Source: an uncultured Gammaproteobacteria bacterium (lineage in GTDB: Bacteria > Patescibacteriota > Patescibacteriia > 2-01-FULL-39-33). Taken from it: a DNA stretch of 56,900 nucleotides. How positions within the stretch are numbered: position 1 is the first letter of the stretch; each line of letters opens with the position of its first letter. Both the position numbers and the translations under genes were made by a program. Of the stretch, positions 541-45,492 are shown one piece after another. Under the pieces are notes generated by a model that was not told the DNA's origin, did no database searches, and was given only the letters and a program-made list of their open reading frames with translations. Location of the stretch: the NCBI GenBank assembly GCA_964350585.1, contig CAYGKC010000004.1:1-56900 (forward strand). Reading direction: 5' to 3'.

Positions 541-942
541 ATGGCTAAAAATTATAACTACAGATTAATTTATGCAAGAGAAAGCTATACTCCCAGCGAA
601 ATAGCAAGGTTATTTAATTTAGACAAAAAGACAATTTTTAGGTGGGTTAAAGAAGGGCTGAGGCCTATTCAATTTCATACTAATCCCTTGTTAATAATGG
701 GGTCTGATTTAAAAGACTTTATCATGAAAAGGCGGAAAGCAAGGAGAAATTCTTTGAATAATGAGGAGTTTTATTGCTTTAAATGTAAAAAGGCGGTGAA
801 GAGCAAAGAAGATAAAATTTGTATTGTTCAATCAGATAAAACAATTGGCAAAAACAAGGCGAAACAATTGATTAAAACAGGGATTTGTGAATATTGTAAT
901 GGCAAAATTAATAAATATTTGAAGCTATATCAAAAAGATTGA
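541..942 (+). CDS. helix-turn-helix DNA-binding protein with C-terminal zinc ribbon (excisionase/regulator-like)
   Basis: SEIARLFNLDKKTIFRWVKEGL resembles an excisionase/MerR-type HTH. The C-terminus has CFKC...CEYC, four Cys. It sits directly upstream of a recombinase gene. Confidence 0.6.
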   Translation: MAKNYNYRLIYARESYTPSEIARLFNLDKKTIFRWVKEGLRPIQFHTNPLLIMGSDLKDFIMKRRKARRNSLNNEEFYCFKCKKAVKSKEDKICIVQSDKTIGKNKAKQLIKTGICEYCNGKINKYLKLYQKD

Positions 943-1005
943 TAGGTAATTCAGTTAGTCTCTTAAATGTCCACATAAAGCATATTAACTAATCGAAAGT
1001 GAAAT

Positions 1006-2124
1006 ATGGAAAAAATTAAATACAAAAATGAAACAATAAAAAGAAGATTTTATAAAGATTTTAATAACTCCAGGGGATATTCCGATAAGTCTATTTTATG
1101 CTTTAAAAAAGCTATTTGGCTATGGGAGGAATTTACCAATGATGATGATTTTATGCATTTTAGCAAGACAAAGGCTGAAAATTTTAAAAATTGGCTGAAG
1201 AAGAGGAAAAAAACAACTACGGAAGATTATATAAGTTTGAGTTATTGCTATGACGTTTTAAGGCACATAAGGCTATTTTTTGGCTGGCTTTCTGAACAAA
1301 GCGGATATAAGTCAAAAATAAATAAAGAAGCTATTGAGTATCTAAATTTAACAAGGGGGGAAATTAAAATTGCAACACAGCCCAAATCTAAGAAAATACC
1401 ATCCGTGGAAGAGATTAAGGTCGTTATTGAAGGCATAGAAGGGAAAAATGAGATAGAAATGCGAGATAAAGCATTAATCTCATTGATTTTAATGACGGGA
1501 GCGAGAATTTCAGCTGTAAAATCATTGCCGATTAAAAGTTTTGATAGAGAAAAGATGATTTTAGAGCAAGACCCTCAAATGGGAGTAGAAACAAAAAATA
1601 GCAAAAGAATTACAACATCTTTAATAACTATTTCTTATTTAGAGCCGAAGAAATACTTTTTAGATTGGTATGACTATTTGGTTAATCAAAAGATGTTTAA
1701 GGGGAATGACCCTATATTTCCAGCAACCAAAATTGAATATGGTCAAGATAATAATCTTGGTTATTTTAATACTGAAAAAGTTGAGCCCGTATTTTGGAAA
1801 AATTCAACATCTATAAGAAAAATCTTTGATAAAAGATTTAAGAATGCTGATATTCCATATTATCATCCTCATAGCCTAAGGCATTTGTTGGTTAAAGAAA
1901 TAAGAAAAATACCCTTAACAGAAGAACAAAAGAAAGCGTTAAGTCAAAACTTTGGTCATTCAAACGTGGGCACAACCTTTGGCTCTTATGGTTATGGCGC
2001 AATAGAAGATGATATACAAGTTGAAATTATTAACGAGATTGATTTTACGGGCCAAAAAACAAAACATGTTTCACTCAGTCTTGATGATTTAAGACAAATT
2101 TTAAAGGAAAAGGATAATGATTAG
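1006..2124 (+). CDS. tyrosine recombinase / phage-type integrase
   Basis: Catalytic-domain signature: TGARISAV (Arg), HPHSLRHLLV (HxxR), FGHSNVGTT, GSYGYG (Tyr). The N-terminal region looks like a core-binding domain. Confidence 0.85.
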   Translation: MEKIKYKNETIKRRFYKDFNNSRGYSDKSILCFKKAIWLWEEFTNDDDFMHFSKTKAENFKNWLKKRKKTTTEDYISLSYCYDVLRHIRLFFGWLSEQSGYKSKINKEAIEYLNLTRGEIKIATQPKSKKIPSVEEIKVVIEGIEGKNEIEMRDKALISLILMTGARISAVKSLPIKSFDREKMILEQDPQMGVETKNSKRITTSLITISYLEPKKYFLDWYDYLVNQKMFKGNDPIFPATKIEYGQDNNLGYFNTEKVEPVFWKNSTSIRKIFDKRFKNADIPYYHPHSLRHLLVKEIRKIPLTEEQKKALSQNFGHSNVGTTFGSYGYGAIEDDIQVEIINEIDFTGQKTKHVSLSLDDLRQILKEKDND

Positions 2125-2254
2125 CGAGGAAAATTTGCAAAAATTTATTGAATTGTATTACAAAAAATATTCTGTTAAGTTAAGAAGACAGGAGGCTTTT
2201 GAATTATTTTCGCAATTGGTTAGGATGGTGAAAATTGCAAATTCTCCTATGTAG
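2117..2254 (+). CDS. small hypothetical ORF (45 aa) overlapping the integrase stop
   Basis: The ATG at 2117 overlaps the integrase stop. Translation: MISEENLQKFIELYYKKYSVKLRRQEAFELFSQLVRMVKIANSPM. Below the ORF-track length cutoff, with no motif support. Confidence 0.2.
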   Translation: MISEENLQKFIELYYKKYSVKLRRQEAFELFSQLVRMVKIANSPM

Positions 2255-2384
2255 GTTAATTTTACTAATCGCTAAATTTATGATATTATATAAATGCATA
2301 CACATTCATATTCAAAGCGTTTTTTTATTGGCCAGAAATGGGCAACTAACCGAAACCATTAAAGAATCGCTTTGATTTGATAAT

Positions 2385-4085
2385 GTGTATGCACGGCTTA
2401 GTTGCCCCTTTTTGTTTAATAAAATGGAAAATCAACAAGAAAAACTTAAATATGTAATTTATAGACGCAAATCATCTGAGGCAGAGGATAAGCAAACTTT
2501 AAGTTTGGCTTCCCAAAAAAGAGAGCTATCAAAATTTGCAAGTCAAAATAATCTTAAAATCGTAGCCGATTTTGAAGAATCGCAATCAGCTTATAAGCAA
2601 GGTAGAGAAAAATTCGCAGAATTGGTTAAGATGATTAAAGAAGGTAAGGCAAATGCCTTGCTTGTTTATCATATTTCGAGATTGGCAAGAAATATGACGG
2701 ATGGAGGATTAATAATAGATATGCTTAAAGATGGCGTCTTAAAAGAAGTTAGAACTCCAGCTGAAATTTATGCCAAAAATTCTGGACAAGAATTTTTTCT
2801 AACATTGCAATTTGCAATGTCTAAAAAAAGTTCAGATGATACCTCAGAATTTGTTAAAAGAGACATTCAAGCTAAGTTGAATAAGGGTGAGTTGCCAAAT
2901 TTCGCTCCAAGAGGTTATTTAAATATAGACCCTAATGGAAAAATATCAGGTAAAAGTTATTCTTTGGAAAAACAAATAGAGCTTGGCAATTTGAGACGAC
3001 CACTAAAAAGAGTTGAGAAAGACCCAACACTTGCGTCATTAATTTTGAGGTTATTTGAAGAGTGTTCTACTGGTAGATATACTCTTGATAGATTAAGGGA
3101 TGAATCTTATAAGTGGGGTTTAACAGGTGGAAGAAGCGAGAAAAAAATTAGCAAATCAACACTTTATAGAATATTAACTAATCCCTTTTATTATGGTGGT
3201 ATACGATGGAAAGGAAGAATTATTGAGCCTTCGGAATTGCCAGAAGAAACAAAGCATGAATCTATTATAAGTAAAGAATTATTTGAAAGAGTTCAAGAAG
3301 TTCTTGGCTTAAGAAGTTTACCAGTTAGTAAAAAAAGATTTTATGTTTATTCAAATTTAATGACTTGCGGAGTATGTGGAGGAAATATTTCGGGCATAAC
3401 AGCAAAAGGCCATACTTATTATCGCTGTTGTAAATGCACTGGTTTGAGTTATGTGAAAGAAGATGAAGTAGAGGGTCAGACTTTAGAGAAACTAAAACAA
3501 CTTACTGCTGATGAAGAATTTTATCAATTGGCAATGCAGGAAGCCAATCGTGAAAATGAAAAAGAAATTTTGCAGAGGGATGCAATTAAGAAACAACAAC
3601 AGTTAGAACTATCACGTTGTCAGCAAAGACTTGATAATTTACTTCGTTTAAAAATATCTCCCGACAATAAGGATGGAGAACTGCTTTCTGATGAGGAATT
3701 TATCAATCAAAAAAAAGAGACTTTAGAGGAAATGAGAATAATTAAGGAAAAAATGGGAGAGATAGAATCTCAAGGTCAGCATTGGTTTGATTTGTGTGTT
3801 AGTTATGTTGATTTTATGAAAAATCTTGCAGATAGATTTGAAAATGGCTCGCCAGAGTTAAAAAGAGATATTTTTCAATTTATCTACTATAACCCATCAA
3901 TAACCTCAAAAACATTGGGATTTAATATACTTTCTCCCCATAAATACATTTATGAGTATAATACCGAAAGCAAGGCCACTATAACCACAGAAAACCCTTT
4001 AAATATAAGCAAAAAAGACGCTTTCGCGTCTTCTTGTTCAATACTGCGGACTGGACGAGACTTGAACTCGCAACCTCCCGCGTGA
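2385..4085 (+). CDS. large serine recombinase
   Basis: N-terminal resolvase-type domain with the Ser motif YVIYRRKSSEAED and LVYHISRLARN. Central recombinase domain (YRILTNPFYYGG), Cys cluster CGVCGG..YYRCCKC and a long coiled coil. The likely true start is ATG 2424 (MENQQEKLKY). The last ~13 codons are antisense to tRNA-Asp. Confidence 0.85.
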   Translation: MYARLSCPFLFNKMENQQEKLKYVIYRRKSSEAEDKQTLSLASQKRELSKFASQNNLKIVADFEESQSAYKQGREKFAELVKMIKEGKANALLVYHISRLARNMTDGGLIIDMLKDGVLKEVRTPAEIYAKNSGQEFFLTLQFAMSKKSSDDTSEFVKRDIQAKLNKGELPNFAPRGYLNIDPNGKISGKSYSLEKQIELGNLRRPLKRVEKDPTLASLILRLFEECSTGRYTLDRLRDESYKWGLTGGRSEKKISKSTLYRILTNPFYYGGIRWKGRIIEPSELPEETKHESIISKELFERVQEVLGLRSLPVSKKRFYVYSNLMTCGVCGGNISGITAKGHTYYRCCKCTGLSYVKEDEVEGQTLEKLKQLTADEEFYQLAMQEANRENEKEILQRDAIKKQQQLELSRCQQRLDNLLRLKISPDNKDGELLSDEEFINQKKETLEEMRIIKEKMGEIESQGQHWFDLCVSYVDFMKNLADRFENGSPELKRDIFQFIYYNPSITSKTLGFNILSPHKYIYEYNTESKATITTENPLNISKKDAFASSCSILRTGRDLNSQPPA

Positions 4086-4120
4086 CAGGCGGGTGCTCTA
4101 ACCAATTGAGCTACCAATCC
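4045..4120 (-). tRNA. tRNA-Asp (anticodon GTC)
   Basis: The reverse complement folds canonically: GGATTGG TA GCTC AATTGGTTA GAGC A CCCGC CTGTCAC GCGGG AGGTT GCGAG TTCAAGT CTCGT CCAGTCC G. No full CCA is encoded; the tail is GCA. Confidence 0.9.
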
Positions 4121-29709: not shown

Positions 29710-32700
29710 ATGAATCAACGACGGCTCTTTTCCATGCAAAGGTCGTTAATTAATTTCTATGCTGTTTTCATCTTGCTGATGATTATAACGGTGATGTTTG
29801 TTTTATTTATACCTCACCAATCATTTGCCCAAACAGTAGCTGATGAAAACACCTCCGCTTTTGCTCAGTCGGCTGGAATAGAAACTGAAACATCTTTGGT
29901 TACCATTATCGGCAATATTGTCAGAGTTCTTTTAGCGCTTCTGGGTATCCTCCTTATTCTTTTGATAATGTACGGAGGATGGATTTGGATGCAGTCTCAG
30001 GGTGATCCCGCGAAAGTTGACAAGGGTAAAAAAATTATTACCAATGCAATTATTGGAGTTATTATTATTTCTCTTGCTTTTGCCATTACAACTTTTGTGA
30101 TGGGAATATTAAATGGTACTTTTGGCGGAGGCGGCAGAGGAAGAGGTCCGGTAATTCCCGGAGGTTACAATGATTGGAACCGTTCAATGATTGGCAAAGG
30201 ACCGATTGAAAGTGTCTATCCGACTCCTAATCAAAAAGATGTATTTATCGATACTTTGGTTGTTGTTACATTTAAACAAGAAATCCAAGCAGATACTATT
30301 TACGGAGCCAATGATAAGATTGTAAGCGATAACATTGAAATTTGTCAGGTTAACGCAGAAACATATGATTGCGTAGAAACAGACGATTTTAAAATAGAGG
30401 CCTTCAATGATACTACGGTAACGAGCACTATTGACAATAGGACTTTTGTCTTTTATCCAAATAAGCCGTTAGGTTTAAATGACGGATTGAAAAGAATTTT
30501 TAAAGTCAAATTAAAAAATGGAATAAAAAATATTTCCGGGGATAATATCTTTAAGGGAGGATATTACGAATGGGTTTTTGAAACAAACGGAAAACTTGAT
30601 TGGAATCCTCCAAAATTATTATTACGAGAAATTTATCCTGTTCCTGATGATTATGCAGATGAATATGGTGATTTAGCTGATCCTAATGCCGGAACAGCTT
30701 CCATAACTATGACCATAGCTGATATAACTCCCGAATTGCCACAAAGGATTGCAACAAGTTCGAACTTATTGTTATATAGAGGGCAACCTTTAAGTTTACC
30801 AATAACTCATGGAGATACTGGACAAATTCTTTATTTAAAAACTGATACGGGCTTTGAATTCAAAACATCAACTTTGACTAATGTTTCTGTTAATATAGTT
30901 TCCAATGGAACGCAAGCTACAGTTTCTTCACCTGATTTATTCGGTTTAGCAGAATCATCTTTACCATTGACTGATACTCAAACTCAATTGAGTTTCAAAA
31001 ACGGCCTTTATTTGCAAACAAGCGGAGGTCCTTTTCAAAAAGGTTTAACTTGGCAGTTTTGGGTAGCAGGCAATAGGGATGGAAAGACTTTTATTATAAA
31101 AAACGGCAATCAAGAATATAGATACCTTTTTGTTGACCAGACATATGACACAAGAAGCACATTATCCAAAAATAATGTTTCTTATCATACTGTTCTTGTG
31201 CCTACAAATTCAAGCTTGACAAATTCCGTTAGTGCTTTGGTGGACAAAATAAACGCGACAGCAGGAGAAGTTGTTGTGGCTTCTTCTTCGGAAGGCACTT
31301 TAAACCTTACTGCCAAATATGCCGGTTCAGCTTCCCAAAATATTGAGGTAGGAACAAGTACAAATTCCCTGACAAAGTTATTAGGAGGAACGGATACTTT
31401 TAAAGGAAGAAGTTTGGTAAGAGGTGCATTTGATCCGTATAACAATTCGCTATTTCAATTTACATTTGATAAGGCAATAAATCCCGTTACTATAGAAGGA
31501 ACTATTATTGTAAAATATGACACTAATGGAGACGGTGTGTTAGATGGAACTGTTCAGGCTTCAAGCTCTATTTCAAATCAGTATAGAACCATTACTTTAA
31601 GACCGCCGAATGTCTGTGGCGTAAACACTTGCGGAGATCCTATCTATTGTTGGATGGAAGTTGCTCCCGAAAATCCCACATCCACTAAATTTGAAATTGA
31701 AATTATTCCTGCTCCGCTTAGAACCTGTAATTCAAATTGGTGCGGCTCTGGAGATTCTAGTGTCGGTTTTGGCGGATCTTGCGAAACCGGTACCACAAAC
31801 AGATGTTTTAAAACAGTTGATGAGAAAAATGCTTTTTATCCGAAAGCGGAAGGCACAAGCGGAATAAGTGATTTATCAAATAATTCATTTAATGGTAATT
31901 TCAATGAATATGTCGATGTCAATGGGAAAACTTTAGGAATTGCAGAAGGTCCAAGTACTAGCACATGCGCTTCAACTGCAGGTTGTTCTGGTATGTCACC
32001 ATATGTTCTTACCACTACGACCAATGTTGTTGCGGGTACTAATACCGGAGATAATGTTAAGTGGAGTTTTTATCTTTCATCTGAAGTAGATACAAAGTCA
32101 CCGCTTATAAACAGAATTTTTCCTGTAGGTAATCAGGATTATGGAATTATTGAAGAAGAGTTGTCAAATAGGGAAGTGGAAGTGGAGTTTGACAGATTAA
32201 TGGATTCTTCTTCTTTTAAGCCGGGATGGGGGTATGGTACAAGTACGGGTAGTACATATTCTAAAAATTGGTATCAAAGATATTTTGTACTTCAGACTTT
32301 AAATAAGGGCGCAAATCCGATTGGTTATTGGATTTCAAAAACAGAAAGTCATGTAAATGGTGATAACGTTCCTGATCGAACCATAGCTTTGATTAAACAC
32401 AATAATTTTGATAATGCAGTGCAGTACGGTCCGCTAATTGGATCGGGAGCTAAGTCAATAACGCAAAATTGTTTTATGCCTGGGGGCGGACCAAGATATG
32501 CCGGCGCGGATGGTGATTTCAATACAGTAACGTCTTCTAATAATTGCATATATACATCTAACGCCAATAATAATTTAAATACTGACGGTTGCGTTAATGA
32601 TAGTATTATTGCTGAACAATACCGTGTTTTTAGCGATAACCCTGCATCTTATGCCCATATGAAATGCGATCAGATTGAAGGTGCTGAAGTATGCGATAAT

Positions 32701-32846: not shown

Positions 32847-35800
32847 ATGGACTCTTCTCAAAATTTAAAAAATATAAGAAGGAGCGCACTATTTTTTGTA
32901 CTTTTTTTATTTCTTTGTTTTGTTTTTATTCCAAATTCAGTTTTAGCTCAAATAAATGTTTTTAGCGAAGCTGCCGGAATCAGTTCAGCGAGAACTTTAC
33001 CAGAAATTATAGGAAGAATTGTCCAAGTTGCCTTGGCATTTTTGGGTATTTTGGCAATTATCTTGATTATGTTCGCCGGCTTTAAGTATATGACTTCAGA
33101 CGGCGATCCTACAAAAGTGGAAAAGGCCAAAAAAATGATTATTCAGGCAGTAATCGGTCTTGTAATAATTTTTGCTTCTTTTGCAATAGTAACATTTATT
33201 TTTAGTAATCTTACAAATATAGTAGAGCCCGATGATAACTCGCTTTGCACTGTTGGTGATGTTCAGTATAGCGGTGTTGATAACTGCGCCTATAGATATT
33301 GCATCAGTGAAAACAGTTGGGGCCAATGGAATAATGATGGCTGTTATTACTATACTGCTAATCAATATTCATACGTGACCGGATTTAAAGATGAATCTCT
33401 TTTGATTAATGGTGTTATTTGGCAAATCGGTGTAACAAAAAGCTTTACCGGAGTAAAATCAATTCCCTTAAGCGCTAATTTGCAAGTTCGCGGATATGGT
33501 CATTATAAGGGAACTTCCAATGAAATTACCGCAATGAATTTAAGGTGGATAGACATTGCTTCAGGGTCAAGCGCTTTTTCTCCAATAGAAAATGTAATAA
33601 AAAATATTAATGGCAATGAGTTTAATGTTGTAGAAAATATTTACGCTCCTTGGAATACCTCGCAATATACAACTGGAACAACTTCCACTATTGACATTTT
33701 TTTAACTCCTCAAGACAGCAGTTATTTTTTTAAAAAATTAAAAGTGAAATTTATTCCCGATCATTGTTTTGACGGAATAAAGAATTTTGGAGAAACAGGC
33801 ATAGATTGCGGTTCTGTTTGCGGTGGAGCTTGTCCGGGAGAATCCTGTGATAATGAACCGTCAACTTCTTCTTGTCAGGCTAATGATAATATGTGCAGAT
33901 ACGGGGTTTGTAATTTAGATACCTGTAGTTGCATTGATGTTCCGCAGATTGATTACATTTCACCTGTACTTGATGTTTTGGGAGATACAAAATTAAATCG
34001 CCCAAATACCTGGAGTGATGATATACCAAACGGAGCTAACGGAAATTTGATTACTATATGGGGAAGCGGTTTTGGCAATTCAACCGGTACTGTAACATTT
34101 GTTGATAATGCCGGTAATTCTTATAATGCGGAATTTCCGGGAGCGCCATGTTCGAATCTTTGGTCGGAAAATCAAATAATTATTAAAGTTCCAAACACTC
34201 CAAATGTTATACCCGTTACCAGTACTTCTCAAATGCGATTCAACACTTCAACTAATTATTCTGTAAAAGTTAACTCAGTTTATGGCATTGAAAGTAATGG
34301 AAAGCCATTTCAGGTTAATCAAATTGAAAGACCGGGAATTTGTTCTGCAACAGCAGGATCTTATCCGGCTACAACCACAATATATGGTCTGAAGTTTCCT
34401 ACCGGAGCTACTAAAAATGTTCTTTGGTCTATTGGTTCTTATGTTAATGGAACATGGATAAACGGGCGTTTAACAGATGCTGTTTGGGCCCAAACTAATG
34501 TTACTAGCACTAGGTCATATGATTGGACAAATAATTCCGTGATCGATTATATTCCCGAAGCAAATTCGACAAATACTGCTAAGGTAAGAATTTTTAACGG
34601 AGCAGAATACAGTAACTATTACTCGTTTATTTTAAGCCGTGGAGGCGTTGGAGAAAGTTGCGGATATTACGATAATGCCTGCTCGGTAAATAATGGATTA
34701 TGTCAAAGCGGTTTGACTTGTGATTACAGCACTTGTTTATGTGAACCGATTCTGGGTACTTGTGTTCCAAATCAAGCCAGCACCACTTCTTGTACGGTTG
34801 CTAATCCGATTGCAAATTGCAGTTACAAATTCAGATGCAATTCAGCGGGAACGAGTTGGGATTGTGCGCCGGATCTGACTGATGCTGATTGTAGTATAAA
34901 TCCTTATACTACTTTTTCTAAACAAATTTTTTATGCATGGGCTTTTAACTCTTTGGGTTGGGGAAATATTGATCAAAGTTGCGGCATTGATCCTTGGGGA
35001 GCATGTGATCCAAGAGGATGCAACAGAGGACTTAGTTGTAATTTAGAAAGTTGTACATGTGTTCAGGCTCAAACATGTAAAAAAGGAGAGGTGAATCCAT
35101 GTACGATTGAAGGCGCTCCAAATCCAAACGGTACCTGTAAATGGCAAGAGGTATGTGGTAATGATGGAATTTTTGGTCAATGTCAATTAGTAGATCCTTT
35201 TTGTTATAATCCTGTACCGCAAGCCCAGCAGACAATGTATAGTTGGCTTTTTAATTTTAATGCCGGCAGTTTAGAAGGCAATCCCTACATTATTGAAAGT
35301 TGTTTATCAAATTGCAATGTAAGGATTCCAACACCTTCACCTTGGTATAAGTTACATATAACTAATGAAGTTGAGGGTTGGGCGACGAATAAGGGCATAG
35401 CAGCCGCCTACGCTCCGGCATGTTCCAATGCTTTGATCACAGCAGAATTTAACAGGAGAATGAATGCAAATACTATAAATAGTTCAACAGTAAAAATATA
35501 TCGTGTTTCTACTACTGGCGAAAAAATACCTTTAGATATCCAGATTAATCTGGAAAATGATAAGTTTCTCCAATTAAGCGTTGCTGAAGGATTGACGACT
35601 TCAACCGTTTATCAGGTAAACCTTTCTGATCAGATTTACAGTTATGAATATAAAAAATTAGTTTTTACGCCTAATTCGCAATTTGCCAAAGATAAAAGAG
35701 GCTGTGATGCTAACGCGGCTTATTGTTGGAATTTTACAACCAGAAACACATTACAACATTGTGAAGAAGGCTGTATCGGTTGCGCTCCAAATCCTACCAA

Positions 35801-41800: not shown

Positions 41801-43637
41801 TGGAAATAAATGGAGACCTTATTGGCAACGGGTAAACGGCTTAAGATACAATCCATTTTATTCCGGTTGGGAAAATGTTATAGAACAAATGGCGTCTTCA
41901 GTTCTTCCCACTTGCGGAAATGGCACATTTAATACCGGCGAAAACTGTAGTAATTGTCCTTATGATGTTCCTTGCGCTGGAGTATGTAACGGTGGTACTT
42001 GTTTAGAGAATTGTGGTGATGGAACGAAACAAGCAGCGGAAGGGGAAGAATGTGATAAAGGTCCCAATGGTGGTTACGATGGAGCAAGATACTGCGCTTG
42101 GAATTGTAAATATGTAGCAAGTTGTGGAGATAGTAATATAGATCCCGGTGAACAGTGTGATGGAATTAATTTAGGCGGCAATACCTGTGAAACCGTTGTT
42201 CCGGGAACCTGTGATTATTCTGGTGCTACTCTTTCTTGTGATAGTAACTGCAGATTTAACGTTTCCCAGTGTAAAGTGCCTATATGGAATACTACTGCCT
42301 GGTCGCCAGCCACTTGTGGTCCAACTACACTATTTCAGATTAGAACTACTACTGCAGCTTTTTCCTATTCAAATCCAACTTGTTTATCTAATTCTCGCAC
42401 AAAGCCGATAGAAAAAAGATCTTGTAATTGTGATGTTGACTATGCGGCAGTATGTTCTGGTAAGTGTGGTATTATGATAGATAAATGTGCGGGGCAAATA
42501 GATTGTGGAAATAATTGTCTTACGGGTGGGGTTTGTGAATTACATAATTTATGCACTCCACTTGGCGAGTTACCTTGTCAGGGCTCTTATCAAACTATAA
42601 GTAGTGATAATACTAGATGCATTTGTGTGCCCGGAACATATTTTAACGGATCGGCATGTGTCTGCGAATCTTGGGCTTCTTGTTTAGCAACAGAGCCTGA
42701 GCCTACATGTACTGATCCTTTAGGATTAATTTCAAACAAGTGTTGCCAAGAAGGATATTATAGAAACACTTCAGGTGTCTGTGTTTTTGATACTTCAGTC
42801 TGTACTGATGTAAGTTGGGCGGAAACTTTAAATTCTGCACCTAATCCTTGCCCATGTTCTGGGACATATATAAGTAAGACATATAAATGTATAATGAATG
42901 GAGTGGAGGTGGATAGTTCAATTTGTGCAAATTGTAATATTTCAGCAATACCGGATGTAATTGCTTCTTGCAATCATTTTAATGATGGTTATTGTGATTC
43001 ATCCTGTACTGGTTCTCAGGCAGAGAATTTTAATAATGACAATAGCTGTCCTTTGAAAAATGGAGACTTGTTTACTCTAAAAACAAATGATGGCGGACAA
43101 TGGTTGCACATAGGAATTAACTACATAAATAACATCTATACTGATGGGCCGTTTAATAATAAAGGTTCGTTTAAATTTATTAGAAATGATGCACTTAATA
43201 ATGAAATAGAATATAGTATTCCACTAATTTTTTTCGGTATTGCAGCAGATGGAACGGAAAAACATTTAAGAACATATTCTAATTACGATTATTTATATAC
43301 TGATAAGCCTGCAATTAATGCAAGCAATCAAATTTATTTATTCACGCTCAATGGCGGCAATGGTATGTTAATGAGAGGATCGGTCTTTACTATTAGAGAA
43401 TTTGGCAGTAGGACAATTAAAGCAAAACTTAAAGATAATCGACCATATTTTGAATCTGGTAATCCGCTTGAGCTAACATTGTGTAATTATTCTGGTAATT
43501 GTGACTCCTTAATTGTATCAGCTGATTTTGAACCTAAAGTTGCAGGAGTGTTTGAAAAACAAGAGTCATCTATATTTGAAAAAATATTGAAATTCTTACT
43601 TAATCCATTTTATAATATATTAAAAATAATAAAATAA
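32847..43637 (+). CDS. giant secreted/anchored protein 2 (3596 aa): signal peptide + pilin-like module + IPT/Ig-like domains + cysteine-rich repeat arrays + 5-fold repeat region
   Basis: Uninterrupted 10.8-kb ORF starting 18 nt after the previous gene. Same N-terminal architecture as protein 1. An IPT/TIG-like segment is present ([28 protein letters not shown]). Y-x-W-x-F-x-T strand motifs recur. There are two arrays of CGNG..GE.CD.GN...GDGCS..C repeats and very many Cys residues. Confidence 0.9.
32958..33206 (+). other. VirB2/TrbC-like (T4SS-pilin-like) two-TM module, copy in giant protein 2
   Basis: [81 protein letters not shown] aligns residue for residue with 29860-30111. Confidence 0.55.
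33942..34200 (+). other. IPT/TIG-like Ig-fold domain in giant protein 2
   Basis: [12 protein letters not shown]...[47 protein letters not shown] follows the IPT pattern (P.I..isP..G...G...vtI.G.gFg.....V.f). Confidence 0.5.
37743..38280 (+). repeat. cysteine-rich repeat array 1 (Myxococcus-type CGNG..E.GE.CDDGN...GDGCS..C)
   Basis: [87 protein letters not shown], and [10 protein letters not shown]. Confidence 0.8.
39650..40320 (+). repeat. five tandem ~40-50-aa repeats (propeller-blade-like) in giant protein 2
   Basis: Each unit starts P-x-x-G and contains h-h-[LI]-W-[SND]-x3-5-Y: [59 protein letters not shown]. Confidence 0.6.
41913..42275 (+). repeat. cysteine-rich repeat array 2
   Basis: [15 protein letters not shown].., [34 protein letters not shown], and [30 protein letters not shown]. 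Confidence 0.75.
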
Positions 43638-43638
43638 A

Positions 43639-44457
43639 ATGTTTGATAATTTACAACAGCAAAATCCAACTCCGGGAGCTGATTTAGATAACCAAAATGC
43701 GCAACAGCCCCTACCTAAACCTGATATTTTTAAGCCCAAAGAACCTTCTACGGTGAATTTCAACACTCCACAACAACAAATTAACAATCCTAACCCTTCA
43801 GGAAGTGTCGAAGATATTTTTTCAAAGACAGATAATCCTTTTTCTCATGATCAGGGCGCAGCGGGAGGTTTTGCTCCATCATCTAATCCCAATATCAGTT
43901 ATAATAATGGAGGTGTTAAAAGATCAAGCTTAGCGGTCTTTTTAATTCCCGTGCTTGTTGTGGCTATAATTGCATTAATTGTAATTGGTTCTTGGTTGAT
44001 ATACGGCAAAATGCAAGAATCCTTCTTTAAGCAATCAAATCCTGTTGAGAATATGCAAAATATGGAAAATGAAGACTTTCTTTCACCGGTAAATAAAACC
44101 GAACCATTAGTTGAGACTCCCACGCCTCCTTTGCCTGAAGTTCAACCGGAAGAAATTCCTCAATCTGTTTTGGACGCTCAAGTTACTACTACTACTACTA
44201 CTACTACTACTACAGAAAACAGTAACGAAGAGATTGACACAGATCAAGACGGGTTAACCGACAGAGAAGAAAAACTTTTAGGTACAGATCCAAGAAATGC
44301 TGATACTGATGGCGATGGCTTAACAGATTATGCAGAAGTTAAAACATATAAAACTGATCCTTTAAATCCTGACACTGACGGAGACGGATTCAAAGACGGA
44401 GAAGAAGTAATTAATGGTTATGATCCCACAAAGACGGGAGGAGTCAAATTATATTAG
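43639..44457 (+). CDS. single-pass membrane protein with thrombospondin-type-3-like DxDxDG calcium-binding repeats
   Basis: The start is 1 nt after the giant-gene stop. Disordered Q/N/P-rich N-terminus, TM helix [25 protein letters not shown], a poly-Thr run, then [43 protein letters not shown]. Confidence 0.75.
44185..44211 (+). repeat. (ACT)9 trinucleotide microsatellite encoding poly-Thr
   Basis: Nine perfect ACT units followed by ACA give a run of 10 Thr. Confidence 0.95.
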
Positions 44458-44472
44458 GTAATTATAAAAAAT

Positions 44473-45492
44473 ATGGAATTAAATACCGTTGAACAAAACA
44501 CAGCGGCATCAAATACTTTGCCTCCGCAAAATATTTATGTGATGCCGGATAAATTTCAACCAAAAGAAAAAAAATCTTCTTTCTCTTCTTTTGTGGTGGC
44601 AATAATTCTTTTAATTATTGTGCTAGTAGCTGTTGGATCATATTTTGCATATGATTATTTTATTAAGGCGAAAAATAAAGATGTCAAAGAAACACCTGTC
44701 GATAACAGTGCAGTCGTGAATTTTCAGGAAGAGGAATTTTTAACTTTAGCTCCGCCTACCGAGGAAGAAATAGTTGAAGAAGTGCAGGAGCCGGCTACAA
44801 CTACTGAACCTGTAAAGGAAGAAGAAAATAAAGATGTGAAAGAAATATCACTTGTCCCTCCGGTTGAAAGTCCGGATACTGATAATGACGGTTTGACTGA
44901 TATTGAAGAGAATTTAATCGGCACTTCGCATTTGGACTCTGATACTGATAAAGACGGATTTAAAGATGGAGATGAAATAATTAGCGGTTATAATCCATTA
45001 ATCCCTGAATCATCGGAGAAAGCAAAATTGGAAAATGCTGATTTTCTAAGAATTGCAGTCACAGATTTTGCAGATGATAATTTTTCAATCCCTGTGATGA
45101 AAAAATGGTCCTTTTCAACAGTAAAGGCCACAAAACAAGCTATTATAACTACAGAAACCGGAGAAATAATTAAAATATCAGTAAAGGAAAACGCCGACAG
45201 AATATCGGCAATTGATTGGTATTTGAAGCTTAATCCTCAGGTTATGCCAGTACAGCTCAAACAAATAGAATACGGCAATCTTTCAGGCTTAATAGCGCCA
45301 GATAATCTTTCTGTATACTTTAGTGACAGTTTAAAAACAAAAATTTATAGTTTTGAATATATTATGGATGCAGGCTCACAACTCAGATATCCAAATATAG
45401 TAAAAATGATGATTAAGAAATTTACCTTGGTAAAATTGGCGCCAAACACGAACAACTCAACTAATACTTCATCAGAAGAAACTTTACCATAA
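44473..45492 (+). CDS. paralogous single-pass membrane protein with DxDxDG repeats plus C-terminal globular domain
   Basis: TM helix FVVAIILLIIVLVAVGSYFAY, an acidic linker, then DTDNDGLTDIEENLIGT..DSDTDKDGFKDGDEIISGYNP, the same ending as the previous ORF. Confidence 0.75.
   Translation: MELNTVEQNTAASNTLPPQNIYVMPDKFQPKEKKSSFSSFVVAIILLIIVLVAVGSYFAYDYFIKAKNKDVKETPVDNSAVVNFQEEEFLTLAPPTEEEIVEEVQEPATTTEPVKEEENKDVKEISLVPPVESPDTDNDGLTDIEENLIGTSHLDSDTDKDGFKDGDEIISGYNPLIPESSEKAKLENADFLRIAVTDFADDNFSIPVMKKWSFSTVKATKQAIITTETGEIIKISVKENADRISAIDWYLKLNPQVMPVQLKQIEYGNLSGLIAPDNLSVYFSDSLKTKIYSFEYIMDAGSQLRYPNIVKMMIKKFTLVKLAPNTNNSTNTSSEETLP

Follow-up and report, generated by a model that had tools for sequence, protein, structure and literature searches.

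Giant predicted surface proteins with N-terminal VirB2-like pilin hairpins, encoded as a conserved gene pair in Patescibacteria of class ABY1

Two giant genes and the module that they share

Two giant genes, which lie side by side on the forward strand of a 56.9-kb stretch of Patescibacterial DNA (contig CAYGKC010000004.1; 'the window' denotes this whole stretch of 56,900 nucleotides (nt)), encode proteins that begin with the same pilin-like module and continue into very large ectodomains. The first protein, P1 (29710..32829, + strand), has 1039 amino acids (aa) and comprises a signal peptide, a hairpin of the T4SS_pilin family, a Gly-rich linker and a beta-rich, Ig-like ectodomain of Big_5 or S-layer-like character (as judged from the open reading frame (ORF), Pfam, AlphaFold2 and Foldseek). 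The second, P2 (32847..43637, + strand), follows after 17 nt and has 3596 aa, its signal peptide and T4SS_pilin hairpin being followed by a Cys-rich ectodomain of giant size (ORF, Pfam and hydropathy).

A Kyte-Doolittle scan located three hydrophobic segments in each protein, all of them N-terminal and corresponding to the signal peptide and two helices; because no other hydrophobic segment is present besides the signal peptide, the hairpin is the only possible membrane anchor of either protein. Both N-termini are of the Sec type (a positively charged n-region, an h-region and AxA-like sites), with signal peptides predicted at aa 1-40 of P1 (29710..29829, + strand; hydrophobic window centred at aa 18-31, sequence ...PHQSFAQT) and at aa 1-34 of P2 (32847..32948, + strand; hydrophobic window again centred at aa 18-31), so that cleavage would, by the AxA rule, fall at SFA/Q in P1 and at VLA/Q in P2. 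The pilin module of P1 (29887..30111, + strand; Pfam, hydropathy and AlphaFold2) matches PF18895 at aa 60-130 and is made up of helix a1 (approximately aa 63-95), the basic loop QGDPAKVDKGKK and helix a2 (approximately aa 100-134). That of P2 (32988..33212, + strand; Pfam, NCBIfam and AlphaFold2) matches PF18895 at aa 48-118, and its helices, at approximately aa 51-82 and 88-125, were modelled as a helical hairpin with a mean predicted local distance difference test (pLDDT) score of 83 (AlphaFold2, from a 90-sequence alignment). Beyond the second helix there remain 905 aa in P1 (30112..32826, + strand), which form a predicted extracellular ectodomain (no hydrophobic segment occurs beyond the hairpin, and the orthologues found all have the same architecture), and 3474 aa in P2 (33213..43634, + strand; ORF, Pfam and hydropathy); the first-pass annotation of the window had estimated these lengths well, at about 900 and 3470 aa.

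The same annotation had described a two-helix module duplicated at the N-termini of both giants, and the duplication is real. Over their first ~167 residues the two proteins share 48% identity and 66% positives across 101 columns (BLASTP, E 3e-27); the only gap, of 6 residues, falls after the cleavage region of the signal peptide and before the module. The module itself forms a gapless block that pairs P1 aa 51-134 (29860-30111) with P2 aa 39-122 (32961-33212); the coordinates originally proposed for P1 stand, while those for P2 (aa 38-120) were off by one at the start and by two at the end. The shared pattern that had been read from this alignment (IIG.IV.V.LA.LGIL...GDP.KV.K.KK.I..A.IG..II...FAI.TF) was given correctly.

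Profile searches with the module place it among the pilins, as had been suspected. The full PF18895 (T4SS_pilin) profile, at positions 2-71 of 71, is matched by the N-terminus of P1 at 42.0 bits and by that of P2 at 48.4 bits (gathering score 26.6), and the scores of the whole proteins (37.4 and 43.2 bits, respectively) still lie above that threshold. For PF04956 (TrbC/VirB2; gathering score 27.9), the N-terminal fragment of P2 scores 29.4 bits, whole P2 23.9 bits and P1 10.2 bits, and for the NCBIfam family NF045849 ('Mbov_0395 family pilin-like conjugal transfer protein'; cut-off 40) the modules of P2 and P1 score 44.2 and 31 bits. The succession of signal peptide, helix a1, basic GDPxKVxKxKK loop and helix a2 is likewise that of PF18895 pilins, and by these sequence comparisons the P1/P2 hairpin belongs to the Patescibacterial VirB2-like pilin family. 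An assignment to the type IV pilins was rejected, as neither protein has a prepilin-peptidase motif (G-F/M-T-L-x-E) and both N-termini are of the Sec type. Matches to 'Pizza' designer proteins, which were returned by a profile search of the PDB, were discarded as spurious.

At 1039 and 3596 aa, P1 and P2 are not the small stand-alone proteins (~100-150 aa) that are made of this module only. A word-indexed search with a two-module profile retrieved 138 proteins, nearly all of them stand-alone PF18895 proteins of 95-240 aa, and its best match, from Candidatus Buchananbacteria, was a truncated orthologue of P1 that carries only the annotation 'Ig-like domain-containing protein'. The same kind of search had returned only 5 proteins for the P1 ectodomain family; its apparent rarity was overturned by an exhaustive hidden Markov model (HMM) search and by a scan of GTDB (described below), and close homologues of the P1 ectodomain retain the PF18895 N-terminus. 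The exhaustive HMM search with the module found 52,659 50%-identity clusters at E <= 1e-3 (12,343 at E <= 1e-10). Judged from the best 150 of these 52,659 clusters, the module occurs in three architectures: as stand-alone pilins of ~130 aa; as one N-terminal module on a large protein of 600-4069 aa (~24 clusters, falling into size classes of ~600-680, ~1000-1150 and 2000-4069 aa); and in many ORFs as 2-17 tandem copies. The tandem and N-terminal-fusion forms show that the T4SS_pilin module is used well beyond the small stand-alone pilin. Among the tandem forms, which may be termed 'polypilins', P0126 has 17 modules in 1775 aa and P0129 has 11 in 1147 aa (P0149, P0017, P0039 and P0055 are further examples), and polypilins of 220-400 aa with 2-4 modules are common. 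The public names of large module-bearing proteins cite the ectodomain only (for example, 'LamG-like jellyroll fold domain-containing protein' or 'cysteine-rich repeat protein'), and the Pfam T4SS_pilin match on these proteins is already precomputed in public databases.

Synteny, sequence constraint and linked evolution

The GTDB scan, in which one genome per species was searched with a 15-sequence P1 alignment as the query, confirmed 581 stretches that encode P1 relatives. The best 78 of these 581 loci come from Buchananbacteria, Falkowbacteria and unclassified Patescibacteria or Parcubacteria metagenome-assembled genomes (MAGs), and those Buchananbacteria and Falkowbacteria genomes of this set that appear among the entries of Table S1 in PMC12102498 are placed there in class ABY1. 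An HMM scan of all ORFs in the loci found an adjacent P1-P2 pair, with the module at each N-terminus, in 75 of 82 sources (the other 7 include truncated contigs). In the 75 paired loci, an ORF of the P1 class (860-1160 aa) is followed by one of the P2 class (~1500 to >4000 aa) after a median gap of 21 nt. The fusion of pilin module and giant ectodomain is thus as unusual as the first-pass annotation had held, when set against the mostly 95-240-aa stand-alone pilins, but it is not peculiar to the window, being part of a two-gene cassette in at least 75 loci and in many 50%-identity clusters.

The surroundings of the pair are also conserved. Two metagenomic relatives have a gene order identical to that of the window, with LytR, signal peptidase I, HisRS, S21 and YqeY followed by a pilin-fused protein of ~1050-1100 aa and then by a pilin-fused giant (4193 aa in one and >3345 aa in the other). 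Across the loci, the order of the cassette is signal peptidase I, HisRS, S21, YqeY, P1, P2, two membrane proteins with thrombospondin-type-3 (TSP3) repeats (TSP3a and TSP3b), YbeY and FtsA; upstream of the pair, signal peptidase I was found in 56 loci, HisRS in 58, S21 in 64 and YqeY in 38, and downstream of it, TSP3a in 26, TSP3b in 25, YbeY in 17 and FtsA in 10. The conserved pair and its fixed synteny together identify the cassette as a vertically inherited chromosomal core feature, and not as a mobile element or an assembly artefact: throughout class ABY1 (Buchananbacteria, Falkowbacteria and relatives), P1 and P2 have been passed on vertically as neighbours. At one locus (L006, 6659-11602), two pilin modules occur in one ORF of at least 1648 aa, and the P1 and P2 frames seem to have been joined there by the loss of a stop codon or by an error of sequencing. 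Many of the GTDB MAGs that harbor the cassette (for example, those of L005, L006, L011 and L016) are titled 'uncultured Gammaproteobacteria bacterium', which looks like a labelling error.

The degree to which the hairpin is conserved was measured as mean pairwise identity over 73-75 orthologues, with the h-region of the signal peptide serving as an internal control for any hydrophobic helix. The two hairpin helices stand at 0.53-0.55 and the loop between them at 0.43-0.46, as compared with 0.19-0.21 for the hydrophobic core of the signal peptide and 0.23 for the Gly-rich linker of P1. The consensus retains the signature residues of the pilin family (..LgfLG.iav.lI.YaGflWMTs.G...Ki.kAKkil.na.IGL.IIlsafaI..F). 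As judged from these alignments, the sequence of the hairpin is constrained far beyond simple hydrophobicity, and the module does not behave as a generic double-transmembrane anchor (helices ~54% identical over ~75 orthologues, versus ~20% for the signal-peptide core); such an anchor, without a significant match to pilin families, is what the first-pass annotation had named as counting against its proposal.

The two modules have also evolved in a linked manner. P1 and P2 modules from the same genome are 0.59 identical on average, as against 0.43 for a P1 module and the P2 module of another genome and 0.45 for orthologous P1 modules, and the P2 module of its own genome ranks at the 97th percentile among all P2 modules for similarity to a given P1. 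This likeness extends to the codons that encode identical residues: within genomes, codon identity averages 0.51 where 0.42 is expected (and reaches 0.73 versus 0.48), while between genomes it shows no excess (0.39 versus 0.38 expected). Such a within-genome excess points to gene conversion that has taken place episodically, in some lineages, between the adjacent modules, and it rules out co-adaptation by selection alone as the whole cause of their similarity. In three loci (L054, L052 and L034), the codon identity of the two modules is 0.66-0.73, where codon usage predicts 0.38-0.48, indicating that the 5' ends of the two giant genes have recently undergone gene conversion with each other. 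The window itself gave no sign of recent conversion (codon identity 0.42 versus 0.43, with 43-48% amino-acid identity). That conversion is tolerated implies that the P1 and P2 hairpins are functionally interchangeable.

The ectodomains, by contrast with each other, appear as a conserved and a variable partner, because P2 orthologues differ in length and domain content (they range from ~1500 to >4000 aa and carry LamG, LTD or VWA domains). Both proteins match Big_5 (PF13205; gathering score 23.6), P1 at 24.9 bits and P2 at 34.5 bits, and P2, which contains 4.9% Cys, adds DUF4215 and myxo_disulf repeats; Pfam reported neither SLH nor any other family that binds the cell wall for either protein. 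The full-length AlphaFold2 model of P1 is of moderate quality (pLDDT 61): it contains the hairpin, the Gly linker at aa 131-178 is disordered (pLDDT <50), Ig-like beta domains are well modelled at ~aa 180-300 and 330-550, and the Cys-rich C-terminal part is poorly modelled. Its best matches in the PDB, found with Foldseek at low template modelling (TM) scores, are the S-layer proteins SbsC (4uj6, E 1.3e-5) and EA1 (8opr, E 5.2e-4), Gram-positive proteins that share with P1 an SbsA-type Ig/Big_5 domain; P1 differs in being anchored by a pilin hairpin, with no SLH detected, and the likeness is qualified by the low scores and the moderate model. At their C-termini, members of the P1 family all have the Cys motif GCCFGKC (a Cys knot), which is invariant, and Buchananbacterial P2 orthologues (window 43560-43634; P0144 and P0212) have in common a hydrophobic or amphipathic tail of ~25 aa (for example, ...IYDKIVNIFIRPFNFLIGLFNFNK); either the tail of P2 or the GCCFGKC motif of P1 could be a sorting or interaction signal.

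Three of the conserved neighbours may have a bearing on the pair. TSP3a (43639..44457, + strand), which starts 1 nt past the stop codon of P2, is a single-pass membrane protein with bacterial thrombospondin-type-3 (Ca-binding) repeats (Pfam TSP3_bac, E 1.4e-22), and TSP3b (44473..45492, + strand; Pfam and sequence), which follows after a further 15-nt gap, likewise spans the membrane once and has a TSP3 repeat; given their conserved place downstream, the two may be accessory partners of P1 and P2. Signal peptidase I (S26 family; 26729..27304, + strand; Pfam Peptidase_S26, E 9.6e-45), encoded ~3 kb upstream of the pair, is a possible processing enzyme for both giants, the functional link being inferred.

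Modular pilins, anchors or propilins

In work on Patescibacterial type IV secretion systems (T4SSs), the VirB2-like pilins of these bacteria are described as the products of stand-alone genes, often in arrays of 2-11 (PMC12102498; PMC10633639; PMC12857230), and in Southlakia epibionticum, the only species open to genetic work, both the T4SS and these pilins are essential (PMC10633639). These pilins are of the same family as the modules of P1 and P2 and have the same layout (signal peptide, two hydrophobic helices and basic loop); they differ in having ~95-240 aa, in consisting of the module alone and in being encoded, in many cases, near virB4, whereas P1 and P2 lie in a housekeeping neighbourhood. 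On the contig of one paired locus (L008), an array of five stand-alone pilin genes is found ~60 kb from the pair, behind a gene for a 472-aa protein, and in this one genome array members 3-5 share 45-61% identity with the fused modules, as compared with 27-60% among the array members themselves. The closest stand-alone relative of the modules in the window (P0002) is, similarly, encoded in third place in an array of five pilins that follows an SBP_bac_1 protein. The arrangement is a conserved cassette in related genomes (L082, 6642-10381; L083, 7689-11394), where five stand-alone T4SS_pilin genes come after a protein of ~454-472 aa (SBP_bac_1 in L083); no stand-alone pilins are closer to the fused modules than members 3-5 of these arrays, and VirB4 was not found within 10 kb on either side of them. 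Among the entries of Table S1 in PMC12102498, four genomes with the P1-P2 pair are listed as VirB4-positive, one of them having VirB4 and TrsD elsewhere in the genome.

Taken together, the constraint on the hairpin, its closeness to the members of one array, the homogenisation of the two modules within genomes and the presence of VirB4 in related genomes underlie the reading that is tentatively preferred here, and whose chances are put just short of even: that P1 and P2 are modular VirB2-type pilins, the hairpins of which pack together and with stand-alone pilins, presenting S-layer-like or adhesin-like ectodomains for contact with the envelope or with a host. Both this co-assembly with stand-alone pilins and the 'polymerising giant cargo' that the first-pass annotation envisaged for the modules are inferred. 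Under such a mechanism, P1 and P2 would be exported by Sec and a signal peptidase would remove the signal peptide; the hairpin, by analogy with VirB2 and TraA, would then take up an N-out/C-out orientation, with its basic loop in the cytoplasm and the ectodomain outside, and the hairpins of both proteins would pack with each other and with stand-alone pilins in one oligomer, be it a pilus or an assembly of pilins embedded in the membrane. Subunits of the F pilus have both termini on the outer face and the loop turned to the lumen (PMC5018250), so that a C-terminal fusion would be displayed outside if the hairpin entered such a polymer; no experimental precedent for C-terminal display on F-pilin was found in the literature. 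Because ectodomains of ~100 and ~380 kDa are too bulky for every subunit of an 87-Å filament, P1 and P2, if incorporated, would be present in low copy, perhaps as a cap, a nucleus or sparse subunits, like the tip-located modular minor pilins of type IV pili. They might stand in for the VirB5 tip adhesin, which is not among the components listed for the Patescibacterial T4SS locus in the review PMC12857230, and the conserved S-layer-like P1 together with the variable Cys-rich P2 would mediate contact with the envelope or the host cell.

The comparison with type IV pili is one of design only. PilB and PilC of S. sanguinis, and GspK, are modular minor pilins that form tip-located complexes, and two bulky modular type IV pilins that are encoded together have been proposed to cap the filament, on the grounds that nothing fits above them (bioRxiv 10.1101/2022.08.25.505150). 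Like P1 and P2, such proteins combine a pilin part with a bulky C-terminal module and are encoded two together; unlike them, they belong to an unrelated superfamily, whose members have only one N-terminal helix and a class III signal peptide that is removed by a prepilin peptidase, and the P1 and P2 ectodomains are 2-8 times larger. The conjugative pilins VirB2, TrbC and TraA share with P1 and P2 the hairpin topology and the basic loop (the N-terminal fragment of P2 passing the TrbC gathering score), but they lie in a T4SS operon and have no ectodomain; P1 falls below the TrbC threshold, and the host of P1 and P2 is described as monoderm. Classical conjugative pilins are, moreover, trimmed or cyclised. 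NF045849, a small pilin-like component of the conjugation machinery of Mycoplasma integrative conjugative elements, resembles P2 to the extent that the P2 module exceeds its cut-off; it differs in being an 80-position stand-alone protein, and P1 lies below the cut-off.

Several observations weigh against the modular-pilin reading. T4SS families (VirB4, VirB6 and VirD4 included) are absent from the window ORFs scanned against Pfam, a set that comprised the 78-aa S21 ORF and the ORFs of at least 90 aa outside the giants, except where these overlapped a larger annotated gene or lay within it. An HMM scan of all ORFs of at least 70 aa matched only the two fused modules, so that the window has no stand-alone pilin, and in the window as in the related loci the cassette sits among housekeeping and cell-division genes. 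The formation of a pilus by Patescibacterial VirB2-like proteins is itself not experimentally established. Solved VirB2 or TraA structures were not retrieved by the hairpin: a sequence profile search of the PDB returned VirB2 (8cue) only at E 9.2, and a Foldseek search with the hairpin model gave no match at E <= 0.001, only generic hairpins at E >= 1 (short hairpins discriminate little). Kinship with the classical conjugative pilins therefore rests on Pfam and NCBIfam profiles and not on structure. The S-layer resemblance of P1 is soft, coming as it does from a full-length model with a pLDDT of 61, and gene conversion alone could keep the two modules alike without any co-assembly. A more specific form of the proposal, in which P1 and P2 would be the first VirB2-type modular pilins, with hairpins that co-assemble with the stand-alone pilins of the T4SS and an ectodomain pair that a monoderm would present at either the tip or the base of its T4SS pilus, there replacing VirB5 as a host-contact device of ABY1 episymbionts, is a fair possibility, though less likely than not.

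The alternative that survives best is that the pilin hairpin was co-opted long ago as a static anchor for constitutive envelope proteins, and that it stays in the membrane and interacts with neither a T4SS nor stand-alone pilins. Such a role would fit the position of the cassette in a core housekeeping, envelope and division neighbourhood (LytR and signal peptidase I at one end, YbeY, FtsA and FtsZ at the other) and not beside T4SS genes, the class-wide retention of a P1 ectodomain whose best structural matches are S-layer proteins, and the sheer bulk of the 905- and 3474-aa ectodomains, which speaks against regular polymerisation. A mere anchor, however, should drift in the manner of the signal-peptide core (about 0.2 identity), whereas helices and loop remain at ~0.54 and the pilin signature residues are kept; the fused modules, moreover, are as near to the stand-alone pilins of their own genome (in the one genome concerned) as those pilins are to each other, and the two modules have been homogenised within genomes. 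An anchor of this type is accordingly a possibility to be taken seriously, if one that is more probably wrong than right.

TrbC/VirB2 propilins undergo C-terminal trimming, and P1 and P2 might by analogy be propilin-like polyproteins, from which the ectodomain would be cut after helix a2, freeing a pilin of normal size and a secreted giant protein. The flexible and poorly conserved Gly-rich linker that follows helix a2 in P1 (pLDDT <50 at aa 131-178; identity 0.23) would offer a place for such a cut, and the conserved signal peptidase I gene ~3 kb upstream a candidate enzyme; against these stand a linker with no evident conserved cleavage motif, the absence of a long Gly linker from P2, the resemblance of the peptidase to housekeeping LepB (in a neighbourhood of translation genes) and the stand-alone pilin arrays of related genomes, which leave no obvious need for a pilin made by this route, and the scheme is improbable. 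The last alternative, a generic hydrophobic-helix resemblance or an error of gene calling or assembly that fused a small pilin to a giant gene, draws on the fact that hydrophobic helices can yield spurious profile matches (weak MFS_1, 7tm_1 and DUF973 matches are also listed by Pfam), but it is effectively refuted, and its probability negligible, in the face of a pairwise E value of 3e-27, full-length PF18895 matches above a curated threshold, unbroken ORFs of the same architecture in 75 independent assemblies and residue-specific conservation relative to the signal-peptide control.

Other features of the window and significance of the pair

Elsewhere in the window, two regions deserve a brief mention. 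At its left end (541-4120), a tRNA-Asp gene (4046-4120) adjoins genes that encode a helix-turn-helix protein, a tyrosine integrase (1006-2124) and a large serine recombinase (2385-4085), and the region is probably the edge of an integrated mobile element. A tRNA predicted by ARAGORN at 20981-21055, directly upstream of tRNA-Asn (21071-21148), has an undetermined two-base anticodon ('ag'), which may reflect an unusual anticodon loop, an intron or a pseudo-tRNA.

The pilin family itself, its abundance in the Candidate Phyla Radiation (CPR) and the Pfam match on proteins of the P1/P2 type were already known. What appears to be undescribed is a class-wide syntenic pair of giant surface proteins that are anchored solely by VirB2-like pilin hairpins, as does the finding that these hairpins are kept alike to each other and, where this could be checked (in one genome), to stand-alone pilins; fusions of pilins to ectodomains are not mentioned in the passages on pilins and VirB2 of three papers on Patescibacterial T4SSs (PMC12102498, PMC12857230 and PMC10633639). 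Surveys that count every PF18895 match as a 'VirB2', as in PMC12102498, may include such giants; the methods of that paper set no length filter, and its tabulated entries give no protein lengths.

How the Patescibacteria (CPR) attach to their hosts and exploit them is largely unknown, as is the structure that their pilins build in a monoderm cell. The P1-P2 pair ties the pilin system, in a concrete and testable way, to the proteins of the cell surface and of host contact, and the conserved combination of a pilin hairpin with a giant ectodomain suggests that huge adhesin-like proteins are displayed here in a manner not described before. Should the hairpins co-assemble with pilins, they would represent a new principle for conjugative-type pili, that of cargo-bearing modular VirB2 pilins, in parallel to the modular pilins of type IV; if they do not, pilin hairpins would have been reused as sequence-constrained anchors for S-layer-like proteins.

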